Assembly: GCA_043812495.1 (NCBI GenBank)
Contig: JBDRMG010000002.1
Coordinates: 4,890-68,889, forward strand
Direction: 5' to 3'
Length of the DNA stretch: 64,000 nucleotides
Origin: Candidatus Omnitrophota bacterium
GTDB lineage: Bacteria > Omnitrophota > Gorgyraeia > Zapsychrales > JBDRMG01
The notes under the pieces are model-generated. The model saw only the letters and a program-made list of their open reading frames with translations, was not told where the DNA came from and did no database searches. The position numbers were made by a program, and so were the translations under genes. How positions within the stretch are numbered: position 1 is the stretch's first letter; each line of letters starts with the position of its first letter. This document shows, piece by piece, positions 21,595 through 62,688 of this stretch.

Positions 21595-22080
21595 ATGGCC
21601 GGTTTCTTAGATCGCTTCAGAACGAATGTTGTTTTGAGTGTTTACAAAGAACAATCACCGTCGCCCCAAACGCAAGAGTTGAATGACAAAATTGCCCTTG
21701 GTGTTTTATTATGGGTTGTCGCGGAAGCGGATGAAAAGTTTCTCCCTGAGGAAAAAGACAAAATCAAGGACATCTTAAGTTCTCATGGGCATATGTCCAG
21801 CGATGAAATGTCGATTATTCTTGGTTCCATCGAGCAAGCGGCCAAGGAAAGAATTGATCTGTATCATTTTACGCGCGAAGTCAGTCAAGATCTTCGCTAT
21901 GAGGCCAAAATCATTATTCTTGAAAATCTTTTTAGAGTGGCCTGCGCTGATGGCGATCTTGACCACAATGAAAACGAGCTTATTCGCAAGATTGCCGGTC
22001 TTCTAAGAGTGGATCATAAAGATTTTATTGAAGCCAAGATAAAAATTAAGAAAGAGTCTAATTTACCGACTCTTGAATGA
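21595..22080 (+). CDS. TerB-family (tellurite-resistance TerB-like) protein
   Basis: Two TerB-like half repeats (ADEKFLPEEKDKI, ACADGDLDHNENELIRKIAGLL). Confidence 0.55.
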   Translation: MAGFLDRFRTNVVLSVYKEQSPSPQTQELNDKIALGVLLWVVAEADEKFLPEEKDKIKDILSSHGHMSSDEMSIILGSIEQAAKERIDLYHFTREVSQDLRYEAKIIILENLFRVACADGDLDHNENELIRKIAGLLRVDHKDFIEAKIKIKKESNLPTLE

Positions 22081-22187
22081 AATATTTTGATTGTATTTGC
22101 TGAAAACTCCCGCACCAATTATAAAATAATTGGTGCGGGAGTCAATTCGCACTTTCAACTTGCGTTCACTATAGTTCCGCAAGTTGT
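22079..22187 (+). repeat. REP/BIME-like composite element copy C
   Basis: Head GAAATATTTTGATTGTATTTGC, CCCGCACC..GGTGCGGG hairpin, AGTCAATTCG core, CAACTTGCG..CGCAAGTTG hairpin, terminal GCTCATTGGAAGGAGG = SD for tatA. Confidence 0.8.
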
Positions 22188-22400
22188 GTGCTCATTGGAA
22201 GGAGGATCATCATGAGGCTGGGTATTTGGGAACTTCTCATTATTTTTGGCGTGATTTTGATTTTATTCGGTGCCAAAAGGCTTCCTGAAATTGGCCAGGC
22301 GCTGGGCAAGGCGATCCGGGAATTTAAAAAAGCAGGCCAGGATCTCGGGGACGATTCCAAAGAAAAAACGAAAGAAGATCACGGTGAAGACAAAGCCTGA
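22188..22400 (+). CDS. tatA: Twin-arginine translocase TatA/E
   Basis: MRLGIWELLIIFGVILILFGAKRLPEIGQALGKAIREFKKA canonical TatA. Confidence 0.9.
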   Translation: MLIGRRIIMRLGIWELLIIFGVILILFGAKRLPEIGQALGKAIREFKKAGQDLGDDSKEKTKEDHGEDKA

Positions 22401-23103
22401 TCAGCTCACCTTTAGCGAACATTTGGAAGAGTTAAGAGGGCGTCTGATCAAGGTGCTTGTGACTTTGGCCGTTTGTTGCTTTATCGTTGCTTTTTATGTC
22501 GACAAAATACTCACCTTTTTTATTCGACCCATCGGAACTCTTATTTTCACGTCACCCGCCGAAGCGTTCTTGGCCCATATGACTCTGATTTTTGTTGGGG
22601 GTTTTACCCTCAGCGTTCCTATTACACTTTATCAGGGATGGCAATTTATGGTTTGCGGGTTAACAACCAAAGAAAAAAGGTATGCCTTTTTCTTTGTTCC
22701 GCTATCAACAACATTCTTTCTTCTTGGGCTTCTGTTTGGTTATTTTGTCATACTGCCTATCGCCTTAAAATTTTTGTTAGGCTTTTCTAATTCAATGATT
22801 CGACCGATGATTACGATCGGGAATTATGTTTCTTTTGTGTGCGCGATTGTTCTTGTCTTCGGTCTTGTTTTCCAATTTCCCCTGGGGATTCTTTTTCTGA
22901 CAAAACTGGGTCTTGTCCGTCCGTCTTTTCTTATCGAAAAAAGACGCTACGCGATTGTTCTTATATTTATTATCAGTGCTTTATTGACGCCGCCTGATTG
23001 CATCACGCAGCTTCTTATGGCCGGTCCTTTAATACTTTTATATGAACTGAGCATTTTCTTATCAAAAGTCTTCTATCGTTCCAACTTGACTAGAGAAGAT
23101 TGA
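22384..23103 (+). CDS. tatC: Twin-arginine translocase TatC
   Basis: LTFSEHLEELRGRLIKVLV canonical TatC N-terminus, six TM; GTG 22384 chosen so overlap with tatA is minimal (ORF open from 22270). Confidence 0.8.
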   Translation: MKTKPDQLTFSEHLEELRGRLIKVLVTLAVCCFIVAFYVDKILTFFIRPIGTLIFTSPAEAFLAHMTLIFVGGFTLSVPITLYQGWQFMVCGLTTKEKRYAFFFVPLSTTFFLLGLLFGYFVILPIALKFLLGFSNSMIRPMITIGNYVSFVCAIVLVFGLVFQFPLGILFLTKLGLVRPSFLIEKRRYAIVLIFIISALLTPPDCITQLLMAGPLILLYELSIFLSKVFYRSNLTRED

Positions 23104-23155
23104 GATATCATCAAACGGATATTAAGAACCATGATCAAGGCTAAGAAAGAAAACG

Positions 23156-25421: not shown

Positions 25422-25448
25422 GGTTGGGTCAATTTCAAAGGAGGGTCC

Positions 25449-33407: not shown

Positions 33408-33690
33408 TCGCCGAAGCATGAAATGCGAAGGCGGACTTCGGAGGAATCCTTCGGAGTCCGCCAATGAAACAATGGCGGACGAAGAAGGACATATGCTATC
33501 GTTTCCATTGGTTATGCGAAGTAGAATGACTCTTCGACACAAGCATTCTTCCACCGCGGCCTCTCGTTTCAATGAGGCCCGCACTTATGAAACGATAGTG
33601 AACATAAGTGCGAGGCCGAATTGACCCCCACACCAATTATGAAATAATTGGTGTGGGGGATAAAATAAATACAATTATAATATTTCCTTT
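33408..33690 (-). repeat. REP/BIME-like composite element copy D plus extra CGAAG/CTTCG palindromes
   Basis: TCCGCCAATGAAACAATGGCGGA, CATAAGTGCG, CGAATTGACCCCC core, CACACCAATT..AATTGGTGTGGGGG hairpin, rc head GGAAATATTATAATTGTATTTAT. Confidence 0.8.
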
Positions 33691-33735
33691 TAAAGAGAGG
33701 CCCGCATAATTTCAACACAGGTTTAGAACAACGCG

Positions 33736-40815: not shown

Positions 40816-41034
40816 ATGAAGAAAAGAACTTTCAGGTTTTTGTCTTTGTTACTATTTCTTTCTTTGCTTTTCGTTTCCCAAGCTTTATTCTTTGTTCAAC
40901 CTGGCATTGCCAGAAACAGACCTTACCCACCGCCGCCCCCCAGCGCACCCCATCTTACCAAGCCTACGGATCCAAATTTCGATGGCATCTATTTCGTTGA
41001 CTGGACAGATATAGGGGGTCAGGTCTCGACTTGA
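40816..41034 (+). CDS. Small secreted proline-rich hypothetical protein; C-terminus runs into REP
   Basis: ATG with GAGGAG SD, signal peptide MKKRTFRFLSLLLFLSLLFVSQA, PPPPP; last codons lie inside REP R1. Confidence 0.3.
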   Translation: MKKRTFRFLSLLLFLSLLFVSQALFFVQPGIARNRPYPPPPPSAPHLTKPTDPNFDGIYFVDWTDIGGQVST

Positions 41035-41042
41035 CGACATGT
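41015..41042 (+). repeat. RAYT-associated REP copy R1
   Basis: GGGGGTCAGGTCTCGACTTGACGACATG; imperfect palindrome GTCAGGTC/GACTTGAC. Confidence 0.8.
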
Positions 41043-41096
41043 CTTTCAAAAAAGGGGACAGCGCCCTTTAATTTAGTACGTACAGCATCAAACCTG

Positions 41097-41123
41097 GGGT
41101 CAGGTCTCGACTTGACGACATGT
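41097..41123 (+). repeat. RAYT-associated REP copy R2 (direct repeat of R1)
   Basis: GGGGTCAGGTCTCGACTTGACGACATG identical to R1. Confidence 0.85.
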
Positions 41124-41130
41124 TAATCAT

Positions 41131-41139
41131 TTGATATAA
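41131..41139 (+). promoter_or_regulatory. Extended -10 TGATATAAT upstream of RAYT
   Basis: TGnTATAAT about 75 nt upstream of ATG 41213. Confidence 0.3.
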
Positions 41140-41212
41140 TTTTTTAAAGTATTTTGCGGATACTTAATGAACAATATCTATACAAAAAGCATCAGAAGGA
41201 TAACAGAAATTT

Positions 41213-42190
41213 ATGGCAAGACCTGTACGGTTATTATTCGAAGGAGCGTATTATCATGTCATCAATCGAGGGCAAAGTAAACGTGAAGTATTTTTGGATG
41301 AAAAAGATTATGAAGCCTTCCTTAAAGTAATAAGAGAAACCTGTCAGACATACAAGGTCAATGTTGTTGCCTATTGCTTAATGCGCAATCACTATCATCT
41401 CATCGTGTACACGCCAAATGCTAATTTACCTGGTTTTATGAGACAGTTAGGCGGTGTGTATACCCAATTCTTTAATCGAAAATACAAACAAGATGGGCCG
41501 TTATTTAAAGGTCGCTATAAGGCGATTGTTGTGCAAGAGGGCAGTTATCTGCTTCGACTTATACGATACATACATAAGAATCCGATACGGGCAAAGATCG
41601 TTGAGCGATTAGATAAATATCGATATTCAAGTCATGGCTTTTACACAAAAGAAAAAGAAAGTGAATGGCTCAAATTCAAAGATATATTAAAAGGGCAATG
41701 GAGAAAGCTGCAAAATTTTAAAAAGGCTTATCTTGATTTTATGAAAAAGGAGGATCAAGAGCTTGAGGAGTACTTGCAGGAAAAAAGCCGCAAGGCCACC
41801 GATGCCATCATCCTTGGAGACGATGAATTTACGGACACAATTAAAATGAACTATCTCCATGGAAAAAGAGTGTACGGGGATGTGCCTCAAGCCAAGCACA
41901 TAAAAGATGAGATGTGTTTTAAAAAAGTTAAGCGAGAGATTATAAAAGAATTTAAGATAGAAGAAGAGATGTTGTATATTTCTAAGCGGGGTAAGGAAAA
42001 TCTAGCGAGACTCTTGGCCATCGGATTGTTAAGGGAATGTAGCGGTATGACCTATAGAGGTATTGGATATGCTCTTCGAATTGAAAGCTATAAAAGTGTT
42101 GCCAAGTATGCGCAGAGGATGAAAGGTCGGTACTTAAAAGACCAGAGGATCAAGAATCTGTTTGATAGGTTGAAGGTGAGATGTATCTAA
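41213..42190 (+). CDS. REP-associated tyrosine transposase (RAYT, IS200/Y1-transposase-like HuH) with DnaA-domain-IV-like C-terminal HTH
   Basis: YHVINRGQ, MRNHYHLIV (HuH), catalytic Y region (YKAIVVQEGSYLL..YIHKNP); C-terminal LARLLAIGLLRECSGMTYRGIGYAL resembles DnaA C-terminal; flanked by inverted REPs. Confidence 0.8.
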   Translation: MARPVRLLFEGAYYHVINRGQSKREVFLDEKDYEAFLKVIRETCQTYKVNVVAYCLMRNHYHLIVYTPNANLPGFMRQLGGVYTQFFNRKYKQDGPLFKGRYKAIVVQEGSYLLRLIRYIHKNPIRAKIVERLDKYRYSSHGFYTKEKESEWLKFKDILKGQWRKLQNFKKAYLDFMKKEDQELEEYLQEKSRKATDAIILGDDEFTDTIKMNYLHGKRVYGDVPQAKHIKDEMCFKKVKREIIKEFKIEEEMLYISKRGKENLARLLAIGLLRECSGMTYRGIGYALRIESYKSVAKYAQRMKGRYLKDQRIKNLFDRLKVRCI

Positions 42191-42206
42191 GTCGAGACCT
42201 GACCCC
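42181..42206 (-). repeat. RAYT-associated REP copy R3 (inverted)
   Basis: GTCGAGACCTGACCCC is the reverse complement of GGGGTCAGGTCTCGAC; overlaps the RAYT stop codon. Confidence 0.8.
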
Positions 42207-44562: not shown

Positions 44563-44565
44563 TAG

Positions 44566-44783
44566 AAATAGTATTTTTATATTTGTTTGACCCCCCGCCC
44601 CGCTTCTTGCTTCCGCCTGTCTGCCGACAGGCAGGCAAGAAAACAGCGGGGCGAGGTCAATTCGACCTTATAACTTATGTTCCGTCAATTCGATTTCATC
44701 GAATTGGCGAGACCTCGTCAGAAAATTTATAAAAAGACGGGCGCTTCACTCCATAAGTAATGGTCTCATTGATCGGAGGAATT
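44566..44783 (+). repeat. REP/BIME-like composite element copy E (beta subtype)
   Basis: CCGCTTCTTGC..GCAAGAAAACAGCGGGG, GAGGTCAATTCGACC core, TTCGATTTCATCGAA hairpin, terminal GGTCTCATTGATCGGAGG = SD for glyA. Confidence 0.8.
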
Positions 44784-46489: not shown

Positions 46490-46502
46490 AGGGTCGTTTT
46501 TA

Positions 46503-49374: not shown

Positions 49375-49591
49375 AAATGGCTGCAAGACCAAAAACGACG
49401 GGATTTTTGGAACAGATACGTTTTATTTCAAAAGAACGCTTTATTACTAAAAGTGGTGGGGGGTTCAATTCGGCTCGCAACTTACGTTTCCGTCAAAATC
49501 AAAGATTTTGACGAGATCTCGCCAATGGCATTAATGCAATTGGCGGACACTTGCGTTCCGTAAGTTGCGGCGTCATTGAAGGAGGGTTGCC
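49356..49591 (+). repeat. REP/BIME-like composite element copy F
   Basis: ACCCCCCACCACTTTT..AAAAGTGGTGGGGGG hairpin, TTCAATTCGG core, GCAACTTACG..CGTAAGTTGC hairpin, terminal GTCATTGAAGGAGG = SD of 49592 gene. Confidence 0.8.
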
Positions 49592-50005: not shown

Positions 50006-50007
50006 AA

Positions 50008-51081: not shown

Positions 51082-51221
51082 GGAAATATTACAGTTGTAT
51101 TTGCTTAATTCCCCGCTTCTTGCTTTCGCAAGAAAGCAGCGGGGTCAATTCGTCCTTATGACTTATGTCGTCCGCCACTGAATCAATGGCGGACTCCATA
51201 AGTCATGGCCTCATTGAGATG
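51082..51221 (+). repeat. REP/BIME-like composite element copy G
   Basis: Head GGAAATATTACAGTTGTATTTGCTTAAT, CCCCGCTTCTTGC..GCAAGAAAGCAGCGGGG, GTCAATTCG, CATATG..TCCGCCACTGAATCAATGGCGGA..CATAAGTCATGG, CCTCATTGAG. Confidence 0.9.
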
Positions 51222-52046
51222 ATAAAGATTATCGCGATTATTCTTTGTTCTGTTTTTGCGTTCGTCCTTTTTGTACGGACGCTTGAGCATACAAGTATTT
51301 TTTTTCCGACCCGCTCCATCACATTCACTCCGCAAGATATTAACTTAGCTTTTGAAGATATTATTTTCCCAAGCCATGGACTTTCTCTGAACGGTTGGTT
51401 GATCAAAGCCCCGAATGCCCGCTCAACGCTTCTATTTTTTCATGGTAATGCCGGAAATTTAAGTCATCGGCTGGAAAAAATTCAAATGTTCCATCGCATG
51501 AGTTTAAATGTTTTTATTATCGATTATCGGGGCTATGGAAAAAGCCAGGGACGTCCCAGCGAACAAGGCCTGTATCAAGATGCTCTGAGCGCTTATGATT
51601 ATCTCGCGAGTCGAAGCGATATCGACCAAAATAATATTATTGTTTATGGCGCCTCCTTAGGAAGCGTAGTAGCGATTGATTGTGCGACCAAAAGAAAAAT
51701 GGCCTGTTTAATTGTTGATTCCGCTTTCTCAAGCGCGGCCGATATAAGCCGGAGAATCTATCCGTTTATTCCCGTGTGGCTATTGAGAACGAAAATGGAC
51801 TCTGTATCAAAAATTCAATCTATTTTTGTTCCCAAGCTGTTCATCCACAGCCGCGATGATGAAATTGTGCCGATTGAATTAGGCCGCAGGTTATTTGATC
51901 AAGCTCCTTTGCCAAAGAAGTTTATCGAAATCCGCGGAGGGCATAACACCGGCTACGGTGAATCGGAAAAAGAATTTACGCAAGGGATACAATCATTTCT
52001 TGAGGAACTCAATCTTCTCAATGAGGCCAATATTTACGGAGTGTAA
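51219..52046 (+). CDS. Alpha/beta hydrolase (serine hydrolase with N-terminal TM anchor)
   Basis: LFFHGNAGN, GASLGS nucleophile elbow, D and H downstream; ORF-track start at 51165 lies in the repeat and is rejected. Confidence 0.7.
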   Translation: MIKIIAIILCSVFAFVLFVRTLEHTSIFFPTRSITFTPQDINLAFEDIIFPSHGLSLNGWLIKAPNARSTLLFFHGNAGNLSHRLEKIQMFHRMSLNVFIIDYRGYGKSQGRPSEQGLYQDALSAYDYLASRSDIDQNNIIVYGASLGSVVAIDCATKRKMACLIVDSAFSSAADISRRIYPFIPVWLLRTKMDSVSKIQSIFVPKLFIHSRDDEIVPIELGRRLFDQAPLPKKFIEIRGGHNTGYGESEKEFTQGIQSFLEELNLLNEANIYGV

Positions 52047-52215
52047 CGCCCGCCCATTTTCCTAATATTAGGCGAGGTCTCGCCCATTCGATAAAATCGA
52101 ATAGGCGGAACGTAAATAGACGGCCGAATTGACCCCCGCACCTTTTATCTATTCAAATATATTTAAATCGTGCGATGTTAAGATATTTGAACGAGAAAAA
52201 GGTGCGGGGGTATAA
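52047..52215 (-). repeat. REP/BIME-like composite element copy J (beta subtype)
   Basis: CCGAATTGACCCCC core, CCCCGCACC..GGTGCGGGGG, TTCGATAAAATCGAA hairpin and GGCGAGACCTCGCC shared with copy E. Confidence 0.75.
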
Positions 52216-52250
52216 AGAAAATAAAATCTGATTATTTCTTTTTTGAGGGC

Positions 52251-54955: not shown

Positions 54956-56895
54956 TTACGATTACAAATCTTTCAAAGAATTTTGATCAACGGCTTCTTC
55001 TTAAGGATGTTTCCCTGGGTATTTTTCCTAATGAGAAAATAGGACTAACGGGTCCCAATGGAACCGGGAAAACAACCCTTTTTTCGATTATCTTAGGAGA
55101 ACTTGAGCCGTCGGCCGGAACCGTCCAGGTTCAGAAGAATATTCGCATCGGCTATCTTCCCCAAGAGGCAAAATTCGATTCCGAGCGGACCTTAATTCAA
55201 GAATTGACATCCGGGGATGAGCGTATGCGGGGGCTGATTCGGGAAAAGCGGCAACTCGAGGATGAAAATAAAGCCGATACCGAGCGCTACGGCGACGTCG
55301 TCCATGAGTTGGAGTTATTGGGCATTTATAATCTTGAACATAAAGCCGAGAAAATCCTCTCGGGCTTGGGTTTTAGCCAAAGGGATTTTCAGCGGCCTAT
55401 TAATCATTTAAGCGGTGGTTGGCGCATGCGCGCTTTATTAGCTAAATTGTTGACCTACGATTATGATTTGCTTCTTTTAGATGAGCCCACCAATTATCTG
55501 GATTTGCCGGCAACCCTTTGGCTTAAGGATTTCCTATCTCATTATCCTGGGACTTTCGTTATTATTTCGCATGACAAAGTTTTCTTAAATGAAGTCACCA
55601 ATTACACCATTATTTTAGAAGACGGCCGGATGACAAAAGCAAAAGGCAATTATGAGCAGGTTGAGGCTGAAAAAGAGAACAGGCTTAAGTTTCTTGAAAA
55701 AAAGAAGAAAGAGGTCGATAAGAAACGTCAGCAATTGGAACGGTTCGCTCAGCGTTTCCACGCTCAACCCAATCGCGCGGCCGCGGTCAGAAACAAACGA
55801 AAGATGATCGAGCGTCTGGAAAATATCGAATTACCGCCTGAGAGAAAAAGCATCAAAGATTTTACGTTTGCATCGCCCGAGAGCAGCGGCTATAACGTGA
55901 TAACCTTGGAGCATGTCCAAAAATCTTATGGGGAAATTGAAGTCTATAAGGACATCAATCTGGAAATAACGCGCAAACAAAAGGTTTGCCTTGTGGGCGC
56001 CAATGGCGCCGGCAAATCAACACTAATGAAAATACTGGCCGGCATCGTTGATGTTGACGCGGGCGTAAGAAAACTGGGCTATCAGGTCGATGTCGGTTAT
56101 TTTTCGCAAACACGCCTCGATGTTCTTCATCCTGAGCGAACGGCTTTTGATGAGGTCGTTTCGGCGGCACCGGCGGGCATGCCGGCTGTACAGGTCAGAA
56201 CTCTTTTGGGTATTTTTAATTTTCACGGAGACGATGTCTTTAAGCAGGTCAAAATACTTTCCGGCGGAGAAAAGAGCCGTGTGATTCTGGCTAAATTATT
56301 GATTAATCCGCCGAATTTTATTTTATTAGATGAACCGACAACGCATTTGGATATTGACGGTGTCGAAGCGCTCACCAAGGCGTTTAAGAAATATGACGGG
56401 TCATTATGTTTTATCAGCCATGATTTATTCTTTATTAGAGAGATTGCCAATACCATCATTGAAGTTGACCAAGGTTGCCTGAAGGTTTTTCCGGGCCGTT
56501 TTCAATATTATTTGGATAAGAAGAAAGAAAAGGAAGATTCCCATAAAAAAGAAAAACAAGCTCTGAAGATGCAGCAAAACAATGAGCAGGTAAAAAAGAA
56601 GAAGAAAGAGAAAATTAATGAAGCTGCTCTGCGTCTGCACAAACAACATCGAGAGGCGCTCAAAAGGCTATTCGACATTAAGCAGGTCATCAGTCATTAC
56701 AAGAAGGAAAAAAGTGATCTTGAAACAGAGAGTTACGTCAAGGCCAGAGTTCTTTCGCAGCCGTTTAAGACAAGAGATCAGCAAATGCTTAAAGAATACG
56801 GCCAGCGCCTGAAGGCCATTGACAAACGCATCAAAGAGATCAACAAAGAGATTGATAAATTAATAAAAGAGCGCGATAATATTCAAAACACTTGA
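54952..56895 (+). CDS. ABC-F family ATPase (Uup/EttA-like, two ABC domains plus K/E-rich coiled-coil tail)
   Basis: Two Walker A (GPNGTGKTT, GANGAGKST), two LSGG signatures, no TM domain. Confidence 0.85.
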   Translation: MITITNLSKNFDQRLLLKDVSLGIFPNEKIGLTGPNGTGKTTLFSIILGELEPSAGTVQVQKNIRIGYLPQEAKFDSERTLIQELTSGDERMRGLIREKRQLEDENKADTERYGDVVHELELLGIYNLEHKAEKILSGLGFSQRDFQRPINHLSGGWRMRALLAKLLTYDYDLLLLDEPTNYLDLPATLWLKDFLSHYPGTFVIISHDKVFLNEVTNYTIILEDGRMTKAKGNYEQVEAEKENRLKFLEKKKKEVDKKRQQLERFAQRFHAQPNRAAAVRNKRKMIERLENIELPPERKSIKDFTFASPESSGYNVITLEHVQKSYGEIEVYKDINLEITRKQKVCLVGANGAGKSTLMKILAGIVDVDAGVRKLGYQVDVGYFSQTRLDVLHPERTAFDEVVSAAPAGMPAVQVRTLLGIFNFHGDDVFKQVKILSGGEKSRVILAKLLINPPNFILLDEPTTHLDIDGVEALTKAFKKYDGSLCFISHDLFFIREIANTIIEVDQGCLKVFPGRFQYYLDKKKEKEDSHKKEKQALKMQQNNEQVKKKKKEKINEAALRLHKQHREALKRLFDIKQVISHYKKEKSDLETESYVKARVLSQPFKTRDQQMLKEYGQRLKAIDKRIKEINKEIDKLIKERDNIQNT

Positions 56896-56935
56896 AAATA
56901 TGCGCTGATCCGACAAGACACCATCGGAGGTTGAG

Positions 56936-57328
56936 ATGTTGAGAATGTGTTCCCTTATAGCGTTCGTTATTTTTCTCTCAGGATGCGCCAAAGTTTCGCA
57001 TCTGCAAGAACTTTTGACACTCAAGACCTATTCGGATAATCAGGGACTTCAAGACCAATATGTTCAAGAGCAGGATGAAAAATTTGCAAAACTTTTGGGC
57101 GCGATCAAAGAGAAACGTATCCAGGATTATCCCAGCAAAAAGTCATTTCTTAAGAATTTCGGCGATCCGATATTCACAAAAGTCGTTAATAAAAATAATC
57201 AAAATGTTGAACAGTGGCTTTATCGTTATGCGCAGAAATATTTCAATTCCCCGAAAGTGTATGCGTATTTCGATTCTTCGGGTCAACTCATTGATTGGTC
57301 ACTCGAAGAACCGATTCAAAAGGAATAA
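56936..57328 (+). CDS. Hypothetical lipoprotein
   Basis: Lipobox FLSGC after signal peptide. Confidence 0.5.
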   Translation: MLRMCSLIAFVIFLSGCAKVSHLQELLTLKTYSDNQGLQDQYVQEQDEKFAKLLGAIKEKRIQDYPSKKSFLKNFGDPIFTKVVNKNNQNVEQWLYRYAQKYFNSPKVYAYFDSSGQLIDWSLEEPIQKE

Positions 57329-57333
57329 GGAAG

Positions 57334-57624
57334 ATGGCGCGTATCAAAATTGAAAAACCCTCAGAGCAAGAACGCAAGAAACTTGGTATTCCCGATACAC
57401 CCCAAAATACCGCCCAGTGGTCTATCTGGGAATGCGCACCCAGCGCATTTGACTGGCAGTATTCAGACGAAGAAATTGCTTATATCTACGAAGGAAAAGT
57501 GAGAGTCAGAACGGATCAGGGAGAGATTGAGATTAACAGAGGAGATCTTGTGACCTTCCCCAAAGGTCTAAAATGTCGTTGGCAGGTTTTAGAACCTGTT
57601 AAAAAGGTCTATCAATTCCGATAA
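57334..57624 (+). CDS. Cupin-domain protein (DUF861/cupin_3-like)
   Basis: YIYEGKVRVRTDQGEIEINRGDLVTFPKG typical small cupin; AAGGAAG SD. Confidence 0.6.
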   Translation: MARIKIEKPSEQERKKLGIPDTPQNTAQWSIWECAPSAFDWQYSDEEIAYIYEGKVRVRTDQGEIEINRGDLVTFPKGLKCRWQVLEPVKKVYQFR

Positions 57625-57655
57625 GATATTTCAATGACGATAAGAGAGGATTCCT

Positions 57656-57796
57656 ATGAAACCATCCAAAAAACCGAAATACCGGCTTGATCCGAAGAAA
57701 TTTGAACCTACCGCGGAAAAACAAAAGAAGGAGAAAGACTGGTCCGGCTCAGATATATTCGATGAAATCAAACGGTCAAAATCCTACCGAAGATAG
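57656..57796 (+). CDS. Small basic hypothetical protein (46 aa)
   Basis: AGAGAGGA SD, MKPSKKPKYRLDPKK...; not in ORF track (<60 aa). Confidence 0.25.
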   Translation: MKPSKKPKYRLDPKKFEPTAEKQKKEKDWSGSDIFDEIKRSKSYRR

Positions 57797-57798
57797 CC

Positions 57799-58479
57799 TT
57801 GGCCCATTTGCAGACAAGAAAGATTCTAGAAAAGATCTATCAGCAGCTGTTGAATGCCTTCGGTCCTCAAGAATGGTGGCCTGCCGATTCCTGTTTTGAA
57901 GTCATGATCGGCGCCATCTTGACGCAAAACACCAATTGGAAGAATGTTGAGAAGGCCATTGCGAACTTACGCAAGCGAGATTTGCTGACTTTTACGAAGC
58001 TTGATCGCCTTTCTGTCCGCCAACTGGCAGCGCTGGTTAAACCCGCCGGATATTACAATATCAAGAGTCAAAGAATCAAAGAGTTCCTTGCTTTTATGCG
58101 CAAGGAATATAAGGGTGATGTCCGCGCTATGGCGAAAACAGAGTGCTTGAAACTACGAGGACAATTATTGAGCGTCAAAGGCATCGGGCCGGAGACCGCT
58201 GATTCTATTCTTCTATACGCATTGAATAAGCCCATCTTTGTCGTAGATGCCTACACAAAAAGAATACTTTTACGGCATCATCTTATCAGCACGCAAGCGG
58301 ATTATCCGACCATCCAGAACTTTTTTATGCAGCATATTAAGAAGGAAGCAGAAATCTATAATGAATATCACGCGCTTCTCGTCCGCTGCGCAAAAGAATT
58401 TTGCAGGGCCACTCCCTTATGCGAAGCTTGTCCATTGAACAAGACAAAGTATTACGCAAAACCGCTCTGGAACAATTAA
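57799..58479 (+). CDS. HhH-GPD / endonuclease III-family DNA glycosylase with C-terminal 4Fe-4S
   Basis: GPQEWWPA, HhH (LLSVKGIGPETADSILLYAL), catalytic D in VVDAYT, CRATPLCEACPL; TTG start. Confidence 0.7.
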   Translation: MAHLQTRKILEKIYQQLLNAFGPQEWWPADSCFEVMIGAILTQNTNWKNVEKAIANLRKRDLLTFTKLDRLSVRQLAALVKPAGYYNIKSQRIKEFLAFMRKEYKGDVRAMAKTECLKLRGQLLSVKGIGPETADSILLYALNKPIFVVDAYTKRILLRHHLISTQADYPTIQNFFMQHIKKEAEIYNEYHALLVRCAKEFCRATPLCEACPLNKTKYYAKPLWNN

Positions 58480-58524
58480 CTATGGCAGTTCTTTACAGCC
58501 GTTTTCTGATACCATATAATGAAG

Positions 58525-58662
58525 AAATAGTAAATTCTTATTTGCTGTACCCAGCCCGCCACTGAATCAATGGCGGGCTGGGTCAATTCGCGCATATGAT
58601 TTACATTCTCCCGTCTTAAAGCCGGGATCATGTAAATCATGCGCTCATTGAAGAGAAGAAAG
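58525..58662 (+). repeat. REP/BIME-like composite element copy H1 (gamma subtype)
   Basis: CCAGCCCGCCACTGAATCAATGGCGGGCTGGG, GTCAATTCG, GCGCATATGATTTACA..TGTAAATCATGCGC, CTCATTGAAGAGAAGAAAGAGGAGGG. Confidence 0.85.
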
Positions 58663-58673
58663 AGGAGGGAAAT

Positions 58674-58829
58674 ATGATCTGTTCTATACCATATGAAATA
58701 TTCACGGATGTACAGCTCTTAGGAATTCTGGGTGTCAGTATATTTTTTGTCATCTGGATTGTTTTCGTTCCGATTGTGATCACGGCTCGATTAGAGAAAA
58801 TCATTAAGCTCTTGGAAGAAAAGAAATAA
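58674..58829 (+). CDS. Small hydrophobic protein (51 aa, one TM) between direct repeats
   Basis: AGAGGAGGG SD from repeat H1, MICSIPYEIF..GILGVSIFFVIWIVFVPIVI.., followed by hairpin terminator. Confidence 0.4.
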   Translation: MICSIPYEIFTDVQLLGILGVSIFFVIWIVFVPIVITARLEKIIKLLEEKK

Positions 58830-58849
58830 TTTCTTAAGAACGGTGGATG

Positions 58850-58893
58850 TGAAAAGCGGCCCGCCAATGAATCATTGGCGGGCCGCTTTTTCC
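58850..58893 (+). terminator. Terminator-like hairpin built from REP core
   Basis: GCGGCCCGCCAATGAATCATTGGCGGGCCGC plus TTTTTCC. Confidence 0.6.
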
Positions 58894-58894
58894 T

Positions 58895-59030
58895 TACTGA
58901 AGGAAATAGTAAAATTTTAATTTGACGTACCCCGAGTCCGCCACAAACTTTGGCGGACTCGGGGTCAATTCGCGCATATGATTTATACTCCCTATCAGTC
59001 GCATAAATCATGCGCTCATTGAAAAGAATG
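58895..59030 (+). repeat. REP/BIME-like composite element copy H2 (gamma subtype)
   Basis: CCCCGAGTCCGCCACAAACTTTGGCGGACTCGGGG, GTCAATTCG, GCGCATATGATTTATA..TATAAATCATGCGC, CTCATTGAAAAG. Confidence 0.85.
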
Positions 59031-59041
59031 ATCAAATCATA

Positions 59042-60211
59042 TCAGGAGATCTCAGAAAGGAGATTATATCGTGGTTCCAATTCCCCAAGAAATTTGAGAT
59101 TGAATGTTCTAAAGAAAACGGGAATCGGCAGAAACAGGAAATTGACCGATAGAAAAAGAAGGAATAAAAAAATTCCTCCCAAAATAGCAAAAATAACTCC
59201 GAGGATGACTTGCAGAGTCGAAGGGAGTAAATTAAGCGCAAAGTAAATGGCAAATCCCAGAAGAACCACGAGGAAGCCGACAATAAGCAAAATTATTAGA
59301 CCGATGATCATAGCTAAAATGCTTCCGGCGATAGCAAAACCCATGCATATCAGAAGATAAAGCAAAATTTCTTTCAAATTTATCTTAAGAAGAACAAATG
59401 CCTCTGGCCATGCGCGCATAATGCTAATATTATTTTTAAACATAATAGGGAGGACAAAATTTTGAACAAACCAATGAATGAGCATGCTCACAATAAAAAG
59501 GAAGGCAAAGATAAAGAGAAAGGGGGCCGCTATGCCAAGAATCCTAAAGAAACCAATCTCTGAGGCGTGCTCAAAAACTCCGGCCTGACTCAAAGATTGA
59601 AAACATCCAAAACCAAGACCGGCAAAAAGGACAAGAAACACCAAACCAAAGACAAGATTCCATAGAAAATAAGACGTCCCAAGTCCCCTCAGTTGAATAA
59701 ATGGCTGTTTAATATTGACCTTATTTTTAATAATATCGTCCAAGAAGACAAAAAAGAAGATGCTTCCGATCCAGGCAAGCAGCATCACTAGTATAGAAAC
59801 AAAAAGAATCACTATCCCCCCAATGGCAAGAACAATAGGATTGGATTTGATCGACTCAATCATCTGTTTAAATTCGTCTAGACCTGAAGAGGCTGCCAGA
59901 TGAACAAATTTCTTCTCTTCCATGACATCTGAAGCTAAGTGAAAATCTGGCGTTGAAAGCTGCCAAGAGGTTTCCGTTTCCGAGGGTGCCGAATCTCTTT
60001 TCTGAAAGAAATTTCCGCCGCCGTTTCCGCCGCCAATAGACAGCTGTCCTGAAAGCCAGGCGATCAAAGCCAGAGTGACCCATTTCCTGAGATTAAAGGG
60101 TTGGAAAAGAATGGTTTTTGTTCTTTCAAAAGAGAACTTAATAATGGGGCTAAAATCGATTTTCATATTTTCATGATAACACTTGAGAAAAACAATGCAA
60201 ACAATTTTCAT
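59042..60211 (-). CDS. Hypothetical polytopic membrane protein with Gly-rich N-terminal region
   Basis: About 7-8 TM helices, GGGNGGGN segment; no family recognised; start could be internal ATG (60166). Confidence 0.5.
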   Translation of the reverse strand: MKIVCIVFLKCYHENMKIDFSPIIKFSFERTKTILFQPFNLRKWVTLALIAWLSGQLSIGGGNGGGNFFQKRDSAPSETETSWQLSTPDFHLASDVMEEKKFVHLAASSGLDEFKQMIESIKSNPIVLAIGGIVILFVSILVMLLAWIGSIFFFVFLDDIIKNKVNIKQPFIQLRGLGTSYFLWNLVFGLVFLVLFAGLGFGCFQSLSQAGVFEHASEIGFFRILGIAAPFLFIFAFLFIVSMLIHWFVQNFVLPIMFKNNISIMRAWPEAFVLLKINLKEILLYLLICMGFAIAGSILAMIIGLIILLIVGFLVVLLGFAIYFALNLLPSTLQVILGVIFAILGGIFLFLLFLSVNFLFLPIPVFFRTFNLKFLGELEPRYNLLSEIS

Positions 60212-60279
60212 ATTTTTAACCCATTGTTGCCGGATGGAGAATCTGATATAATGACGTTGCCATTGTGCGCGATAGGAAG

Positions 60280-60660
60280 ATGAAAAATATCAAAATACAA
60301 TTAGGCACATTAGAGGTTATCGCGCGCCTGAACGGTTCGGCCACGGCCGGCAGGATTTGGGATGCCCTGCCTTTAGAGTCTTTGACGAGTCTCTGGGGTG
60401 ATGAGATTTATTTTCCGATTCCTGTTAAATGCAAAATTGAGGAAGGGTTCGCCAAAGACGTTGTGGATATCGGTGATATTGCCTATTGGCCCGAGGGAAA
60501 ATGTTTTTGTATCTTCTTTGGGCAGACACCGGTGAGCAAACCCGGCGAAATCCGTCCGGCAAGCGCCGTAAACCTCATCGGAAAAATAGAAGGCAACTGG
60601 GAGCCGCTCAAGAAAGTGAAAGAAAACGAGAAGGTTATTATCAAAGAATTAAAGGAATAG
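60280..60660 (+). CDS. Cyclophilin-like fold family protein (DUF369/Cyclophil_like-type)
   Basis: ARLNGSATAGRIWDALPLES...GDIAYWPEGKCFCIFFGQTP; AGGAAG SD, TGATATAAT extended -10 at 60243. Confidence 0.5.
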   Translation: MKNIKIQLGTLEVIARLNGSATAGRIWDALPLESLTSLWGDEIYFPIPVKCKIEEGFAKDVVDIGDIAYWPEGKCFCIFFGQTPVSKPGEIRPASAVNLIGKIEGNWEPLKKVKENEKVIIKELKE

Positions 60661-60676
60661 AATCCAGAAAGTTTCC

Positions 60677-61684
60677 ATGAATCATCTGATGCTCATCATT
60701 ATTGCTGCCGTTGCCATCTTGCTTGCCGTGATTATTATGCTGATCATTCATTTAAGCAGAATGAATCACCAGCTTTCTACACAATTGGCGAATACAATGG
60801 ATAAGCAATTGGAAACGATGCGCGGCGAGCTCAATGCCCGGCTCAATGAGACCAGCCGTGCCATTGCCGAGACCCATAAAACGGTTGGTGAACGGTTGGA
60901 TAATGCGACAAAAATTTTCGGGACCGTTGCCACAAGTCTCGGGCAGCTTCAGGAGGCCAACAAAAGGCTTTTGGAAGTCGGTCAGGATATTGCGAGCCTG
61001 CAGGAACTTTTACGCGCCCCCAAATTTCGCGGAGAAATCGGCGAAACCATGCTGGAAAATATTTTGGCGCAGGTCTTACCTAAGGATCATTTCGAATTAC
61101 AGTATCATTTTAAGACCGGCGATGCGGTGGATGCGGTCATCAAGCTGGCCGACCATCTGGTGTGCATTGATTCAAAATTTTCCTATGAGAATTTCAAAAA
61201 GATGATTGAAGCGGACCATGAGGACGAAAAGGCTTCTTATCAGAAAAAGTTTATTAAGGACGTCAAAAATCGCATTGACGAAATTTCCGCGAAATATATT
61301 CTCCCCGATGAAAGAACATTTGACTTTGCCCTGATGTACATTACGGCCGAAAATGTTTATTACGAGACGATCATCAAAGGCGATTTTCTTAGCTATTCAT
61401 TGTCCAAGAAAGTGGTCCCCGTTTCTCCGAATACCTTTTATGCTTACCTGCAAGTGATTTGTTTGGGTTTGCGGGGAATGAAAATTGAAAGCAATGTGCA
61501 GAAAATTATCGCCAGTTTGAATCAGCTTCAAGGGGACTTAAAGAAATTTGACGAGTCCTTTAAAGTCGTCGGCAGCCATATTCGCAATGCCGCCACAAAA
61601 TACACCGAAGCAGAGAAGAAGCTTGAAAGATTTTCGGATAAATTAATCAGCGTTGAACAGAGTAAGCAAATCGAAGCTCTCTAA
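60677..61684 (+). CDS. rmuC: DNA recombination protein RmuC
   Basis: N-terminal TM, coiled coil, LRAPKFRGEIGETMLENIL and DAVIKLADHLVCIDSKF RmuC signature. Confidence 0.85.
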   Translation: MNHLMLIIIAAVAILLAVIIMLIIHLSRMNHQLSTQLANTMDKQLETMRGELNARLNETSRAIAETHKTVGERLDNATKIFGTVATSLGQLQEANKRLLEVGQDIASLQELLRAPKFRGEIGETMLENILAQVLPKDHFELQYHFKTGDAVDAVIKLADHLVCIDSKFSYENFKKMIEADHEDEKASYQKKFIKDVKNRIDEISAKYILPDERTFDFALMYITAENVYYETIIKGDFLSYSLSKKVVPVSPNTFYAYLQVICLGLRGMKIESNVQKIIASLNQLQGDLKKFDESFKVVGSHIRNAATKYTEAEKKLERFSDKLISVEQSKQIEAL

Positions 61685-61709
61685 TCTTGCCAAGGCACCC
61701 AAATATTTC

Positions 61710-62453
61710 ATGCCCCCAAAAGAAAAACTCAATCGTCAAAAAATCTTGGGAAGACTTCAGAATTTCTTTGGTAAAGACGTGTTTGTTTTTGTAAGCGAGC
61801 GGCCGGTGGACTTTTCTCTGGCCAAAAGTGCTCCCTTGTTTTCTTCGCAACAGAAGAACTTATTCAAGAGAAGGGGAAGCCTTAAGTTTTCGCGCGTCTT
61901 GAATATTCGGCAAATTCACGGATGCCGTATTCTTTGCGTGACAGGAGAAAATGATTGGCCCCAAAGAAAAATAAGGAGAGCCGACGGCCTGATGACATGC
62001 GCGTCCCATATTCCCTTGGCGGTTCGGATAGCCGATTGCTTGAGCATTTTCATGTTTGATCCAAAGACGAAAACAATTGCCCTCGTTCATGCGGGTTGGC
62101 GTGGAAGCCGAAAGCAGATAGCCAAGAAAGCCGTTCTTCTTATGAAAAGAAAATTTGGCGCCAGAGCGGAAAATTTAAAAATTACTTTTGGCCCGTGCAT
62201 ACGGTCTTGCTGCTATCAGGTGAGCGTTCCATTTAAGAATTATTTTCCTCGCGAAGTGAAAAAAAGAAACAATCAATACTATTTGGATTTACCTTTGGTC
62301 AACAAGAATCAATTAATCCAAGCAGGCGTAGAAAAAAGAAACATTTTTGATAGCCGGCTTTGCACCTTTTGCGATCAACATTTTTTCTCCTTTCGCCGGC
62401 AAGGAAAGAAAGCCGGACGCATGATTTCGCTGATTATGAGAAAATCTTCGTGA
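61710..62453 (+). CDS. yfiH: YfiH/PgeF (DUF152, Cu-oxidase_4) purine-nucleoside phosphorylase/laccase-domain protein
   Basis: IALVHAGWRG, FGPCIRSCCYQV, C-terminal CTFC motif. Confidence 0.85.
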   Translation: MPPKEKLNRQKILGRLQNFFGKDVFVFVSERPVDFSLAKSAPLFSSQQKNLFKRRGSLKFSRVLNIRQIHGCRILCVTGENDWPQRKIRRADGLMTCASHIPLAVRIADCLSIFMFDPKTKTIALVHAGWRGSRKQIAKKAVLLMKRKFGARAENLKITFGPCIRSCCYQVSVPFKNYFPREVKKRNNQYYLDLPLVNKNQLIQAGVEKRNIFDSRLCTFCDQHFFSFRRQGKKAGRMISLIMRKSS

Positions 62454-62530
62454 CAGGCTTAAAAAGAGAACGCGTGTAGCAATTCCCCTTTTTCTATGGC
62501 ATAATCAAGGTAGAAGGTCATTCTTTATAG

Positions 62531-62688
62531 TTGAAATATTATAATTGTATTTGCTTAATCCCCCGCCTCACCAAAATTGTTAAACAATTTTGGTGGGCGA
62601 GGTCAATTCGTCCATATGACTTATGTCGTCCGCCACTGAATCAATGGTGGACTCCATAAGTCATGGCCTCATTGAAAGGACGTCAAAG
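62531..62688 (+). repeat. REP/BIME-like composite element copy I
   Basis: Head TTGAAATATTATAATTGTATTTGCTTAATC, CCCGCCTCACCAAAATTG..CAATTTTGGTGGGCGAGG, GTCAATTCG, CATATGACTTATG..TCCGCCACTGAATCAATGGTGGA..CATAAGTCATGG, CCTCATTGAAAGGA = SD of cutA. Confidence 0.9.

Follow-up and report, generated by a model that had tools for sequence, protein, structure and literature searches.

Small hairpin-forming intergenic repeats of Omnitrophota lie between stop codons and ribosome-binding sites, mostly in sense orientation

In a 64-kb stretch of Omnitrophota DNA (the window, meaning the whole stretch that was analysed), a small hairpin-forming element that had not been described before occurs 11 times, with 7 copies on the + and 4 on the − strand. 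Copies of this repeat fill the entire short gap from the stop of the preceding gene to the ribosome-binding site (RBS) of the next one; they are overwhelmingly in sense orientation, and their invariant 3' box is flush with the native Shine-Dalgarno (SD), or with the start where the gene has no SD. The copies probably belong to an Omnitrophota-wide family of small non-coding hairpin intergenic repeats, a miniature mobile DNA of the REP/BIME/REPIN kind, and such a family would be new and unusual in its gene polarity. No Rfam family matches the repeat, and our literature search found no paper describing it.

Two hairpins make up each window copy: P1, which is variable and GC-rich, and P2, which is long. 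In 7 of the 11, an AT-rich head of 27 nt stands ahead of P1. P1 lies directly 5' of P2 with zero gap and was found in 127 of 133 copies among the matches listed. The foot of P2 is invariant (GTCAATTCG…CTCATTGA), and CTCATTGA was seen 17 times in the window where 3.3 occurrences were expected, far above chance; a covariance model recovered 7 window copies at E<1e-10. The P2 core is an imperfect hairpin of 57-120 nt. At its base, a TCAAT/ATTGA helix of 5 bp is followed by a UC/UC loop (2x2) and by a second helix, GNNC/GNNC, of 4 bp; above these the 5' strand has a bulge of 2 nt, and an additional helix of ~10 bp leads to a variable tip, which often holds further small palindromes. The window copies are as follows, with the supporting evidence in brackets.

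15592..15712, − strand: copy A; P2 15592-15665, P1 15665-15712, without head; 3' box 6 nt past the stop of the + gene 15244-15585 (model R1, 61.2 bits; fold).
16774..16894, − strand: copy B, truncated; head (1 mismatch) with TATAAT, P1 and the P2 5' arm with nested small palindromes, without the P2 3' arm and 3' box; head 27 nt ahead of the + gene start at 16921 (repeat families D1/D7, I1).
22079..22198, + strand: copy C; head 22079-22105, P1 22107-22141, P2 22141-22198; 3' box in the variant form CTCATTGG, followed by AAGGAGG and by tatA (Pfam TatA_B_E), whose ATG is at 22212; upstream, a TerB gene with its stop at 22080 (R1, 64 bits; fold).
33569..33692, − strand: copy D; P2 33569-33625, P1 33625-33659, head 33660-33686 (3 mismatches) with TATAAT, extended to 33692 by repeat pair I11; neighbours purC (end 33266) and a purS-purL fusion (start 33736), both by Pfam (R1, 62.4 bits; fold).
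44565..44772, + strand: copy E; head 44565-44591, P1 44593-44656, inside which a CTGCC..GGCAGG palindrome is nested, long-form P2 44656-44772 with an interior of 100 nt; then TCGGAGG and the glyA ATG at 44784 (Pfam SHMT); upstream rpiB stop at 44562 (regex and stem test; fold).
49464..49579, + strand: copy F; long-form P2 with variant boxes TTCAATTCG / GTCATTGA, without head or canonical P1; AGGAGG follows, and a response-regulator receiver gene (Pfam Response_reg) has its ATG at 49592 (stem test; fold).
51083..51217, + strand: copy G; head 51083-51109, P1 51111-51144, P2 51144-51217; hydrolase ATG at 51219, 1 nt on, without SD; upstream ychF-like gene stop at 51081 (R1, 58.1 bits; fold; Pfam neighbours).
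52018..52238, − strand: probably copy J of the earlier note; long P2 52018-52133, containing the final 9 codons and stop of the + hydrolase gene (end 52046), P1 52133-52210, head 52212-52238, ending 13 nt ahead of the + GH5 gene start at 52251 (repeats I3, I12; fold).
58550..58651, + strand: copy H1; P1 58550-58582, which is also one of the copies of the small palindrome CCGCCACTGAATCAATGGCGG, P2 58582-58651, without head; GAGGAGGG follows, and a 51-aa ORF starts with the ATG at 58674 (R1, 64.4 bits; fold).
58930..59022, + strand: copy H2; P1 58930-58964, P2 58964-59022; no + gene follows; ahead of the copy lies the 3' end of a gene on the minus strand, 59042-60211 (Pfam DUF7544) (R1, 67.4 bits).
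62533..62675, + strand: copy I; head 62533-62559 (0 mismatches) with TATAAT, P1 62562-62602, P2 62602-62675; then AAGGA and the cutA ATG at 62689 (Pfam CutA1) (R1, 59.3 bits).

An earlier note on this DNA stated that every + copy ends at a + strand start codon. This holds for six of the seven, which lie 1-22 nt before a real ATG, and fails for H2; the six element/start junctions that it quoted are all exact, and the gene identities were confirmed by Pfam. The ATG lies at the following distances from the final base of the conserved 3' box (..TCATTGA/G): 13 nt for C-tatA, 11 nt for E-glyA, 12 nt for F-response regulator, 1 nt for G-hydrolase, 22 nt for H1-51-aa ORF and 13 nt for I-cutA. None of the four minus copies (A, B, D and 52018-52238) precedes a − strand gene, again as claimed; their 3' box looks onto the end of the + gene upstream, lying 6 nt past its stop in A and overlapping its final codons in the 52018 copy. 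With 4 of 11 window copies antisense, there is no strict strand rule. The biases in start-codon distance and orientation, for which a wider check had been proposed, both persist in about 150 independent copies from other genomes, drawn among the matches listed from Omnitrophota MAGs and metagenomes (in the GTDB set 9 MAGs, 8 of them labelled Omnitrophota, gave 9 copies; the metagenome scan gave at least 120 loci). Among these matches, both flanking genes ran in the direction of the element in 81 cases and both ran opposite in 7 (92% sense), and the free spacer between element and SD or start had a median of 0 nt. Two copies lie 1 and 5 nt upstream of tRNA 5' ends (L096 and L020), so the association is with RNA starts and not with translation alone. 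In other genomes an inverted variant arm, L, can overlie the upstream stop codon, giving the order [stop]-L-P1-P2-[RBS]; this layout, [stop]-L-P1-R-[RBS] with P2 as the R arm, occurs in ~18 loci, and L arms also occur alone, directly 3' of stop codons.

Between close relatives (90-95%-identical genomes), copies have been inserted, lost, tandemly duplicated and exchanged. Orthologous sites are empty in one genome and filled in another for L087/L035 (92-96% identity), for the nusG-rplK junction (empty in L096 and L128, filled in L056), and for L083/L074, L089 and L107 vs L091, and L091/L107. One unit stands against two in L043/L037, L116/L135 and L098/L070, and in L045/L108, whose genomes are ~94% identical, different subfamilies occupy the same site. 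Copy density is likewise patchy, with 11 per 64 kb in the window and 0 in 52 kb of L147-149, and at 70-82% identity only about 4-5 of 12 orthologous junctions are occupied. Such patchy occupation, together with the swapping of subfamilies at one site, gives no support to the suggestion of a shared gene-specific regulatory 5' UTR. The empty/filled pairs revealed neither a target-site duplication nor a defined target motif. The fold itself is strongly maintained: P2 pairing reaches 97.2% against ~30% in slid controls, both sides vary in 10 of 19 pairs, and 180 compensatory cells were counted against 56 in shuffles. G·U accounts for 1.3% of pairs, with equal frequency on either strand, which is a DNA-like signature. 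In L031/L140, P2 is ~95% identical and the flanks ~80%; retained copies that are better conserved than flanking coding DNA also fit selection for an RNA function or concerted evolution.

The REP and BIME elements of enterobacteria and the REPINs of Pseudomonas are mobilised by RAYT (Y1 HUH) transposases (PMC3116915, PMC3337134, PMC5581495). With these the Omnitrophota repeat shares high-copy extragenic imperfect palindromes of two inverted arms and a spacer, able to fold as ssDNA or as mRNA, the association with other motifs in mosaics and tandem arrays, discrete subfamilies per genome, insertion/excision polymorphism and the presence of RAYT-type genes in the same genomes. In contrast, it has no GTAG tetranucleotide, its invariant part is the hairpin foot with an asymmetric bulge, and P1 is an obligatory companion hairpin; it is also strongly sense and RBS-flush, whereas the REPINs so far described were reported to be randomly distributed in extragenic space (PMC3116915). 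Correia (Neisseria) and ERIC (enterobacteria) elements are similarly gene-adjacent, co-transcribed non-coding mobile repeats of ~100-150 bp, present or absent between strains, with hairpins that can affect mRNA processing or expression, but they have no sequence similarity to the Omnitrophota repeat. Correia elements further have defined terminal inverted repeats, a TA target duplication and an IHF site and can create promoters (PMC2649163), none of which was found in the Omnitrophota repeat.

The window also contains a candidate mobilising enzyme.

41213-42190, + strand: RAYT-type Y1 (HUH) transposase gene, 325 aa (Pfam Y1_Tnp, E=1.3e-16).
41015..42206: transposase region flanked by the repeat GGGGTCAGGTCTCGACTTGAC, in direct orientation at 41015 and 41096 and in inverted orientation at 42183-42206 (repeats D16, I13).

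The best NCBIfam match of this protein is a REP-associated tyrosine transposase, below its cutoff, and an identical protein is recorded as 'transposase [Candidatus Omnitrophota bacterium]'. The window gene and its homologues carry one kind of flanking repeat, different from P2, which in the homologues is GGGGTCAAGTCTCGACTTGAC, and no transposase gene flanked by P2-type hairpins was found. In the related Omnitrophota L141, GGGGTCAAGTCTCGACTTGAC also makes dispersed REPIN doublets, so that a classical REPIN/RAYT pair fills stop-to-start gaps likewise, and the foot of this repeat type (GGGGTCAAgTC) resembles that of P2 (GGGGTCAAtTC). A 228-aa Y1 family adjoins P2 in L044; elsewhere it has GTAG-type flanks with no P2 nearby. 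We infer a link between the RAYT-like gene and the P2 repeats along the following lines. The invariant foot would be the recognition site of a conserved protein acting on folded single-stranded DNA, for which a Y1/HUH transposase such as the RAYT-like one of the window is the likeliest candidate. Co-transcribed sense copies would fold into stable stem-loops immediately upstream of the translation start and leave it accessible, making insertion tolerable, and these stem-loops may stabilise or delimit the downstream message. A putative RNA-level role, for example as an intercistronic stabiliser or processing hairpin, is possible.

A doubtful but arguable alternative is that the copies are a selected RNA-level 'operon punctuation' module, working through its hairpins as parts of a polycistronic transcript. 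On this view, the upstream message would have its 3' end shielded by the L arm that overlies the stop, and the R arm (P2) at the RBS would serve the downstream message as a 5'-terminal stabiliser or insulator. Cleavage within the hairpins, or between them, would fall to an endonuclease such as RNase III. Spread of the DNA as a repeat may continue all the same, with copies retained for function. The strict polarity relative to genes, the two-armed layout and the lone L arms, the copies before tRNAs and the conservation of retained copies beyond that of neighbouring coding DNA all speak for this module. The intercistronic sites of phage T7 are RNase III processing hairpins, and the ~20-bp interrupted helix of the repeat resembles such substrates. 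The repeat may work like these sites, or like 5' stem-loops that stabilise bacterial mRNAs, in having a ~20-bp helix with an internal loop between cistrons and just upstream of the RBS, a likeness of working only; those are unique fixed sites in one genome, whereas the repeat is dispersed, polymorphic and divided into subfamilies. That RNase III can bind or cut the hairpins of a repeat has a precedent in Correia elements (PMC2649163). However, the element is dispensable, since close relatives have the same junctions, genes and RBS without a copy, and the sparse occupation of orthologous junctions and the antisense window copies also count against the module. The near absence of wobble pairs, with no strand asymmetry, is unusual for a selected RNA structure.

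The earlier note itself favoured a portable leader cassette that brings an SD, and sometimes a -10 box, to the downstream gene. Its mobile, modular and intergenic aspects stand, but donation of either signal does not, and the model is largely refuted and in our view very improbable. In its favour, the SD starts 0-2 nt past TTGA in 72 of 140 copies among the matches listed, and the filled L074 has a new AGGAGG after the element where the empty L083 uses an SD inside the upstream gene. However, homology between copies ends at TTGA, which places the SD outside the repeat unit: the following sequence differs (GGAGG at 0 nt, AGGAGG at 1 nt, TCGGAGG and others), with SD offsets spanning 0 to 8 nt. 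Among the matches listed, 23 of 140 copies (~16%) abut a start codon without any SD, including those of rpsJ, rplK, infA, dnaJ and rpmG. Where close relatives have an empty orthologous site, the same SD (or SD-less start) is already there (L091 vs L107, L087 vs L035), and at nusG-rplK the insertion parts rplK from an SD embedded in nusG with no SD gained. As for the -10 box, a perfect TATAAT is indeed present in three heads (B, D and I), as claimed; two of these (B and D) are on minus copies, and the motif that bears it, ATTATAAT, is its own reverse complement. The head is restricted to this genome, being absent from 146 of 146 other loci among the matches listed, no -35/-10 pair was called in any head, and promoter-like sites were not enriched (32 found, 32.9 expected). 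We infer that the SD belongs to the gene and that the element provides neither SD nor promoter.

A protein-binding regulatory RNA site, such as a boxB-boxA-like NusB/NusE antitermination signal, is highly implausible. It is suggested by the 3' box GCUCAUUGA, which follows a hairpin and presumably resembles boxA GCUCUUUA, a likeness we take as a lead only, and by the occurrence of the element before tRNA genes as well as mRNAs; against this, the box is base-paired in the conserved hairpin foot whereas boxA acts single-stranded, and there are hundreds of dispensable, polymorphic copies, some of them antisense. That the elements are attC-like folded recombination sites of a cassette system is scarcely conceivable: P2 may be likened to integron attC in its folded architecture (paired foot, unpaired central spacer, second short helix, extrahelical bases, variable terminal structure) and in its position between co-directional ORFs near the next start, but the foot differs in sequence from the RYYYAAC/GTTRRRY core sites, no integrase lies nearby, and the gene content contradicts the idea, as the neighbours are syntenic housekeeping genes (nusG-rplK, rpsJ, dnaK, tRNAs) and not cassettes.

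With regard to the REP-like reading that we prefer, it may be added as a counterpoint that 92% sense orientation is not a prediction of a purely selfish model.

Eleven copies of one modular element were identified in the window, concordantly by covariance model, repeat finding and reading by eye, and within these 64 kb all of them are intergenic or overlap gene ends only. A full copy, oriented 5' to 3' along the element, comprises an AT-rich head (GAAATATTATAATTGTATTTGCTTAAT), present in 7 window copies, then P1, a GC-rich and highly variable hairpin of 33–78 nt, and directly 3' of it P2, a long hairpin bounded by a 5' box with the consensus GTCAATTCG and a 3' box, CTCATTGA. The folding z-scores of the copies were -4 to -8. 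P2 stands on a 5-bp foot helix (TCAAT/ATTGA). Above it follow a UC/UC internal loop, symmetric and 2x2, then 4 bp of helix (GNNC/GNNC), a bulge of 2 nt in the 5' strand and a helix of about 10 bp, closed by a tip that measures between 9 and about 75 nt. Small palindromes are frequently nested in this tip, GTCCGCCACTGAATCAATGGCGGAC and CTGCC..GGCAGG being examples. The window copies were as follows, with the spacing between 3' box and ATG given where a gene follows:

Copy C, + strand, before tatA (13 nt)
Copy E, + strand, before glyA (11 nt)
Copy F, + strand, before a receiver-domain gene (12 nt)
Copy G, + strand, before an alpha/beta-hydrolase gene (1 nt)
Copy H1, + strand, before a 51-aa ORF (22 nt)
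Copy H2, + strand
Copy I, + strand, before cutA (13 nt)
Copy A, - strand
Copy B, - strand, without the 3' arm
Copy D, - strand
Copy at 52018-52238, - strand

For three head-bearing + strand copies (C, E and G), only 0–2 nt separate the head from the stop codon upstream, and therefore the element is the whole intergenic region there. The alpha/beta-hydrolase ORF (51219-52046) enters the 3' box of the reverse element (52018-52046) and terminates inside it, so that its last nine codons and stop are element-derived. A further sequence, GTCAATTCTTCATCAAGAGAATGAGGAG at 40781-40815, immediately 5' of the ATG of a small secreted-protein ORF, was undetected by the covariance model; with a 5' box, a short stem and ..AATGA+GGAG, it has the appearance of a P2 foot that is minimal or decayed. 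Both families of small palindrome, GTCCGCCACTGAATCAATGGCGGAC (15625-15650, 16778-16802, 33455-33479, 51171-51195, 58553-58579 and 62629-62653) and CTGCC..GGCAGGCAGG (16755-16773 and 44598-44625), are nested in P2 tips, act as P1 itself (H1) or stand free, and the second is also seen in unrelated copies from metagenomes, again in P2 tips (L035, L049 and L016; L-numbers denote comparison loci from other MAGs and metagenomes). Their recurrence suggests that the hairpin loops may themselves be insertion sites.

The element was also searched for in other genomes. A one-genome-per-species scan with a subfamily-specific pattern returned 20 loci, among which the true element was found in 9 MAGs (8 Omnitrophota and one labelled Planctomycetia), the other 11 being chance matches; with 8 of 9 true matches in Omnitrophota MAGs, the element offers a sequence-defined marker of the phylum. 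A metagenome scan, in which the boxes and a few stem positions were fixed and the 3' stem strand was left free, gave at least 120 loci, with the full hairpin in about 125 of the 127 matches listed; the viral contigs scanned held no copy. Across 72 distinct P2 sequences, pairing was kept in 97.2% of cells, 10 of 19 pairs were changed on both sides, and 180 compensatory cells were observed vs 56 ± 6 in shuffles, while sliding the partner strand lowered pairing to about 30%. Because the search pattern left the 3' stem strand unconstrained, this covariation is independent evidence for the P2 structure. G·U made up 1.3% of pairs, at the same frequency on either strand, and such scarce, strand-symmetric G·U is more in keeping with hairpins of DNA, or with sequence copied recently, than with an old structured RNA. 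Rfam 15 covariance models, self-cleaving ribozymes included, returned nothing at gathering score over the whole window, and at E<=5 only generic hairpin (miRNA-precursor) matches between 44.5 and 63 kb; the literature search found no description of these boxes or of Omnitrophota repeats.

The copy search was strand-symmetric and blind to gene positions. At least about 150 copies were found elsewhere, nearly all between genes. A same-strand start codon of an ORF of at least 60 aa lay within 40 nt downstream in 104 of the 145 evaluable copies listed, and most of the remaining copies stand before small genes (rubredoxin, rpmG), a further tandem unit or a tRNA; the element ends 5 nt from tRNA-Met in L020 and 1 nt from tRNA-Trp in L096. 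The earlier note had stated that every + strand copy ends at a + strand start codon, which held for six of the seven, with exact junctions, but not for H2, which faces the 3' end of a - strand gene. Its remark that the - strand copies have no - strand gene ahead was confirmed; their 3' box points to the end of the upstream + strand gene, with a gap of 6 nt for copy A. The bias in orientation and distance toward starts was borne out across copies: among the matches listed, both flanking genes were co-directional with the element in 81 cases vs both opposed in 7, and the free spacer from TTGA to the Shine-Dalgarno (SD) or start had a median of 0 nt (interquartile range 0–1). Element-to-start distances fell into two modes: junctions that have an SD gave 9–16 nt, and those in which TTGA touches or overlaps the ATG gave -1 to +1 nt. 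The spacing from upstream stop to P1 was 41 nt, and the left spacing exceeded the right in 79 of 81 cases.

This left-hand space is taken up by heads and by units that are older or partial; about 18 loci have in it an inverted P2 variant, the L arm, which reads TAAGTGAG-GNNC…GNNC-GAACTTA on the sense strand with the foot TAAGT/ACTTA. The L arm sits directly on the upstream stop, the TAA/TGA of its box being that gene's stop codon, and the full composite is thus [stop]-L-P1-P2-[RBS], where RBS is the ribosome-binding site. These counts are covariance-model hits; a regular expression under-called the arm (6 found). Composites occur in L083, L098, L040, L105, L023, L064, L021, L046, L110, L115 and L095, and the arm alone in L114, L062, L073, L045 and L096; the window holds no L arm.

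The earlier note had read the element as a mobile leader cassette, or a strongly selected regulatory module, that appears to donate an SD and possibly a -10 box. Mobility was upheld by empty and filled sites, but a leader supplying RBS or promoter was unsupported. Sequence similarity among copies is absent beyond TTGA, and directly after it the 140 copies listed carry GGAG (27), A+GG(A/G)G (34), AAGG (11), the start codon (23) or another sequence (45); SD-less genes behind the element include rpsJ, rplK, infA, dnaJ and rpmG. The empty site L087 reads tRNA-TTTAGAT-ATG, and L035, 92–96% identical, has an element of about 200 nt ending TTGA-ATG, neither with an SD. The empty site L091 reads AAGGGGGG-N5-ATG, and the same site in L107 has the element followed by GGAGG-N7-ATG. 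At nusG-rplK, stop and start overlap or are 1 nt apart in empty genomes, with the SD within nusG, and in L056 118 nt are inserted between the genes with no new SD. Since orthologous empty sites carry the same SD or the same SD-less start, the SD is native and not supplied by the element. As for the promoter, none of the heads gave a -35/-10 call, three of the seven contain TATAAT, promoter-like sites in the region were at shuffled expectation, and heads were found in none of the other loci examined (matches listed). The best sigma-70-like site of 44000-63500 (TTTACA-17-TATAAT, 11/12, at 58492-58520) lies about 30 nt 5' of H1 P1 (58550), and H1 could therefore stand in a primary 5' UTR instead of between cistrons.

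Evidence of movement came from orthologous sites: five comparisons of empty with filled sites, three cases of differing copy number and one in which a subfamily was replaced. Relatives differ in unit number (L043/L037, L116/L135 and L098/L070), partial 3' arms are found 5' of full units, and L045 and L108, whose flanks are 93–95% identical, carry different P2 subfamilies at one junction. At 70–82% flank identity, about 4–5 of 12 orthologous junctions were occupied in both genomes, and retained copies were better conserved than the adjoining genes (in L031/L140, P2 about 95% vs flanks about 80% identity). As to the terminal inverted repeats expected of a transposase-dependent miniature element (MITE), P2 offers only its 5-bp foot as inverted ends, and the composite L-P1-R has inverted hairpin arms. 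No target-site duplication was visible in the empty/filled pairs, which are 72–96% identical, so that short duplications could be hidden; nor was a target motif readable, the left junctions all being stop codons by necessity and the pairs too diverged. The inserted DNA begins 0–5 nt past the stop and ends at the RBS. Because inserts span stop to RBS, start-codon proximity partly follows from the very short gaps. Insertion into such gaps leaves the orientation of the element unexplained, and the sense polarity of about 92% is its most interesting feature.

Considering these results, the best-supported interpretation is that the element represents a new REP/BIME/REPIN-like family of miniature mobile DNA. 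Like REPs and REPINs, it consists of short imperfect palindromes in high copy at extragenic positions and is present or absent at orthologous sites; P2 resembles a REPIN in that two inverted arms around a variable tip form a hairpin, and the composite is a BIME-like mosaic. E. coli-type REPs have a conserved GTAG 5' of the palindrome, whereas P2 lacks it, its 5' box being GTCAATTCG, and GTAG flanks were found only at an unrelated 228-aa Y1 (HUH-type) transposase gene of L148 and L149. A single-copy REP-associated Y1 transposase (RAYT) flanked by the dispersed repeat, as in REPIN-RAYT systems, was not found for P2 in the window or at the other Y1 loci examined. Unlike REPINs (PMC3116915, PMC5581495), the element is strongly sense-polar. 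It shares co-transcribed hairpins adjoining genes with Correia and ERIC elements, but the terminal repeats, promoters and TA duplication of those elements are missing (PMC2649163). The fold is also reminiscent of integron attC. That candidate was rejected, as the P2 boxes differ from the attC core sites (RYYYAAC / GTTRRRY), and the neighbours are syntenic housekeeping genes, whereas cassette genes adjoin an integrase. A hammerhead ribozyme was likewise rejected: the - strand TCAATGAG..CGAATTGAC is superficially core-like, but it lacks the CUGAUGA/GAAA residues essential to the hammerhead core and matched no model. A NusB/NusE antitermination site would need a single-stranded boxA that agrees with the one in the organism's rRNA leader; the candidate box is base-paired in the conserved hairpin, and the sequences examined contain no rRNA operon.

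As to the enzyme, the window contains a gene with a REPtron-like layout (41015-42206):

41213-42190, RAYT-like Y1 transposase gene, 325 aa, Y1_Tnp domain and weak DnaA-C-like tail
41015 and 41096, GGGGTCAGGTCTCGACTTGAC flanking repeats, direct, upstream of the gene
42183-42206, GGGGTCAGGTCTCGACTTGAC flanking repeat, inverted, overlapping the 3' end of the gene

The top NCBIfam model of the 325-aa protein is 'REP-associated tyrosine transposase' (69 bits, under the cutoff of 80), and an identical protein is recorded as 'MAG: transposase [Candidatus Omnitrophota bacterium]'. Its homologues are common, the top-scoring named ones being mostly from Omnitrophota, and have flanks of the same kind. 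The flanking 24–28-nt repeat is distinct from P2 and within the window was found only there. The two have only the foot GGGGTCAA.TC in common, GGGGTCAAgTC…cTTGA in the flank repeat being similar to GGGGTCAAtTC…aTTGA in P2, and this likeness provides a lead that might tie the RAYT-like enzyme to P2. Neither the window gene nor any other Y1 locus examined was flanked by P2. The small secreted-protein ORF upstream of the gene ends within the first GGGGTCAGGTCTCGACTTGAC repeat. In L141, another Omnitrophota genome, the flank repeat also forms dispersed inverted doublets, that is, classical REPINs, exactly filling stop-to-start gaps:

L141, 2167-2228, 4596-4709, 7279-7334 and 15269-15316, REPIN doublets
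L146, 170-238, REPIN doublet

Since these L141 REPINs share the flank repeat of the RAYT homologues, REP/RAYT biology operates in Omnitrophota. The 228-aa Y1 beside P2 in L044 was rejected as mobiliser, as its relatives are GTAG-flanked, keep a syntenic tyrS-brnT position and have no P2 within 52 kb. This family occupies a conserved tyrS-[Y1]-brnT position (L148, 9880-10723; L149, 9364-10207), the inverted repeats flanking it open with canonical GTAG (GTAGACAGTTTACGTAA), and it has the look of a domesticated RAYT passed on vertically.

In a REP-like family, the invariant P2 hairpin foot would be the handle for a conserved DNA-processing protein, and the family would persist in stop-to-RBS gaps as the only sites that a compact genome allows, where the transcribed copies would fold aside. 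The polarity may come from a strand-specific insertion mechanism tied to transcription or replication; GC skew in the compared loci tracks the coding strand, and because of this confounding replication-strand and gene-strand orientation are inseparable. Selection against antisense copies is another possible source. A third is selection for a function in the RNA, where the element would serve between cistrons as a stabiliser, an insulator or a processing signal; this seems to us rather unlikely. Slightly more doubtful still is the proposal that Omnitrophota have domesticated a REP-like repeat genome-wide as an intercistronic cassette, [stop]-L-P1-R-[RBS], which cuts or insulates polycistronic transcripts. 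The 3' hairpin would then cap the upstream message and the 5' hairpin would open the downstream one, flush to the RBS or leaderless AUG; if true, this would account for both the sense polarity of about 92% and the zero-nucleotide spacing.

Under the REP-like reading, strict gene polarity is unpredicted by existing REPIN/RAYT models. If the polarity is functional, mobile DNA would here have become operon punctuation; if it stems from the mechanism of insertion, it would point to a transposase able to read signals of transcription or translation. Hardly any of the abundant Omnitrophota have been cultured, and to our knowledge nothing is known about the expression of their compact operons. The element provides a natural insertion series, at single-nucleotide resolution, in stop-to-RBS gaps of essential genes (rplK, rpsJ, infA, dnaK), showing the amount of structured RNA tolerated at such junctions. 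Furthermore, its repeats will break Omnitrophota MAG assemblies and mislead start-codon calls, several ORF calls running into the element.

Within the window (1-64000), which contains no tRNA gene, the + strand carries almost every sizeable ORF, the sole confirmed - strand gene lying at 59042-60211, and cumulative GC skew climbs almost monotonically, which suggests one replichore with extreme gene co-orientation. Elsewhere, the element also occurs at tRNA introns. In L059 (35-460), the anticodon loop of a tRNA-Asp(GUC) is interrupted by a group I intron (Rfam RF00028, 72.6 bits), and a reverse-oriented P2+P1 lies exactly at the 5' exon/intron border, its foot helix using the exon bases GUCAA. 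The same tRNA-intron-element layout was found in L123 and L055, with a second tRNA-Asp and an apparent tRNA-Glu.
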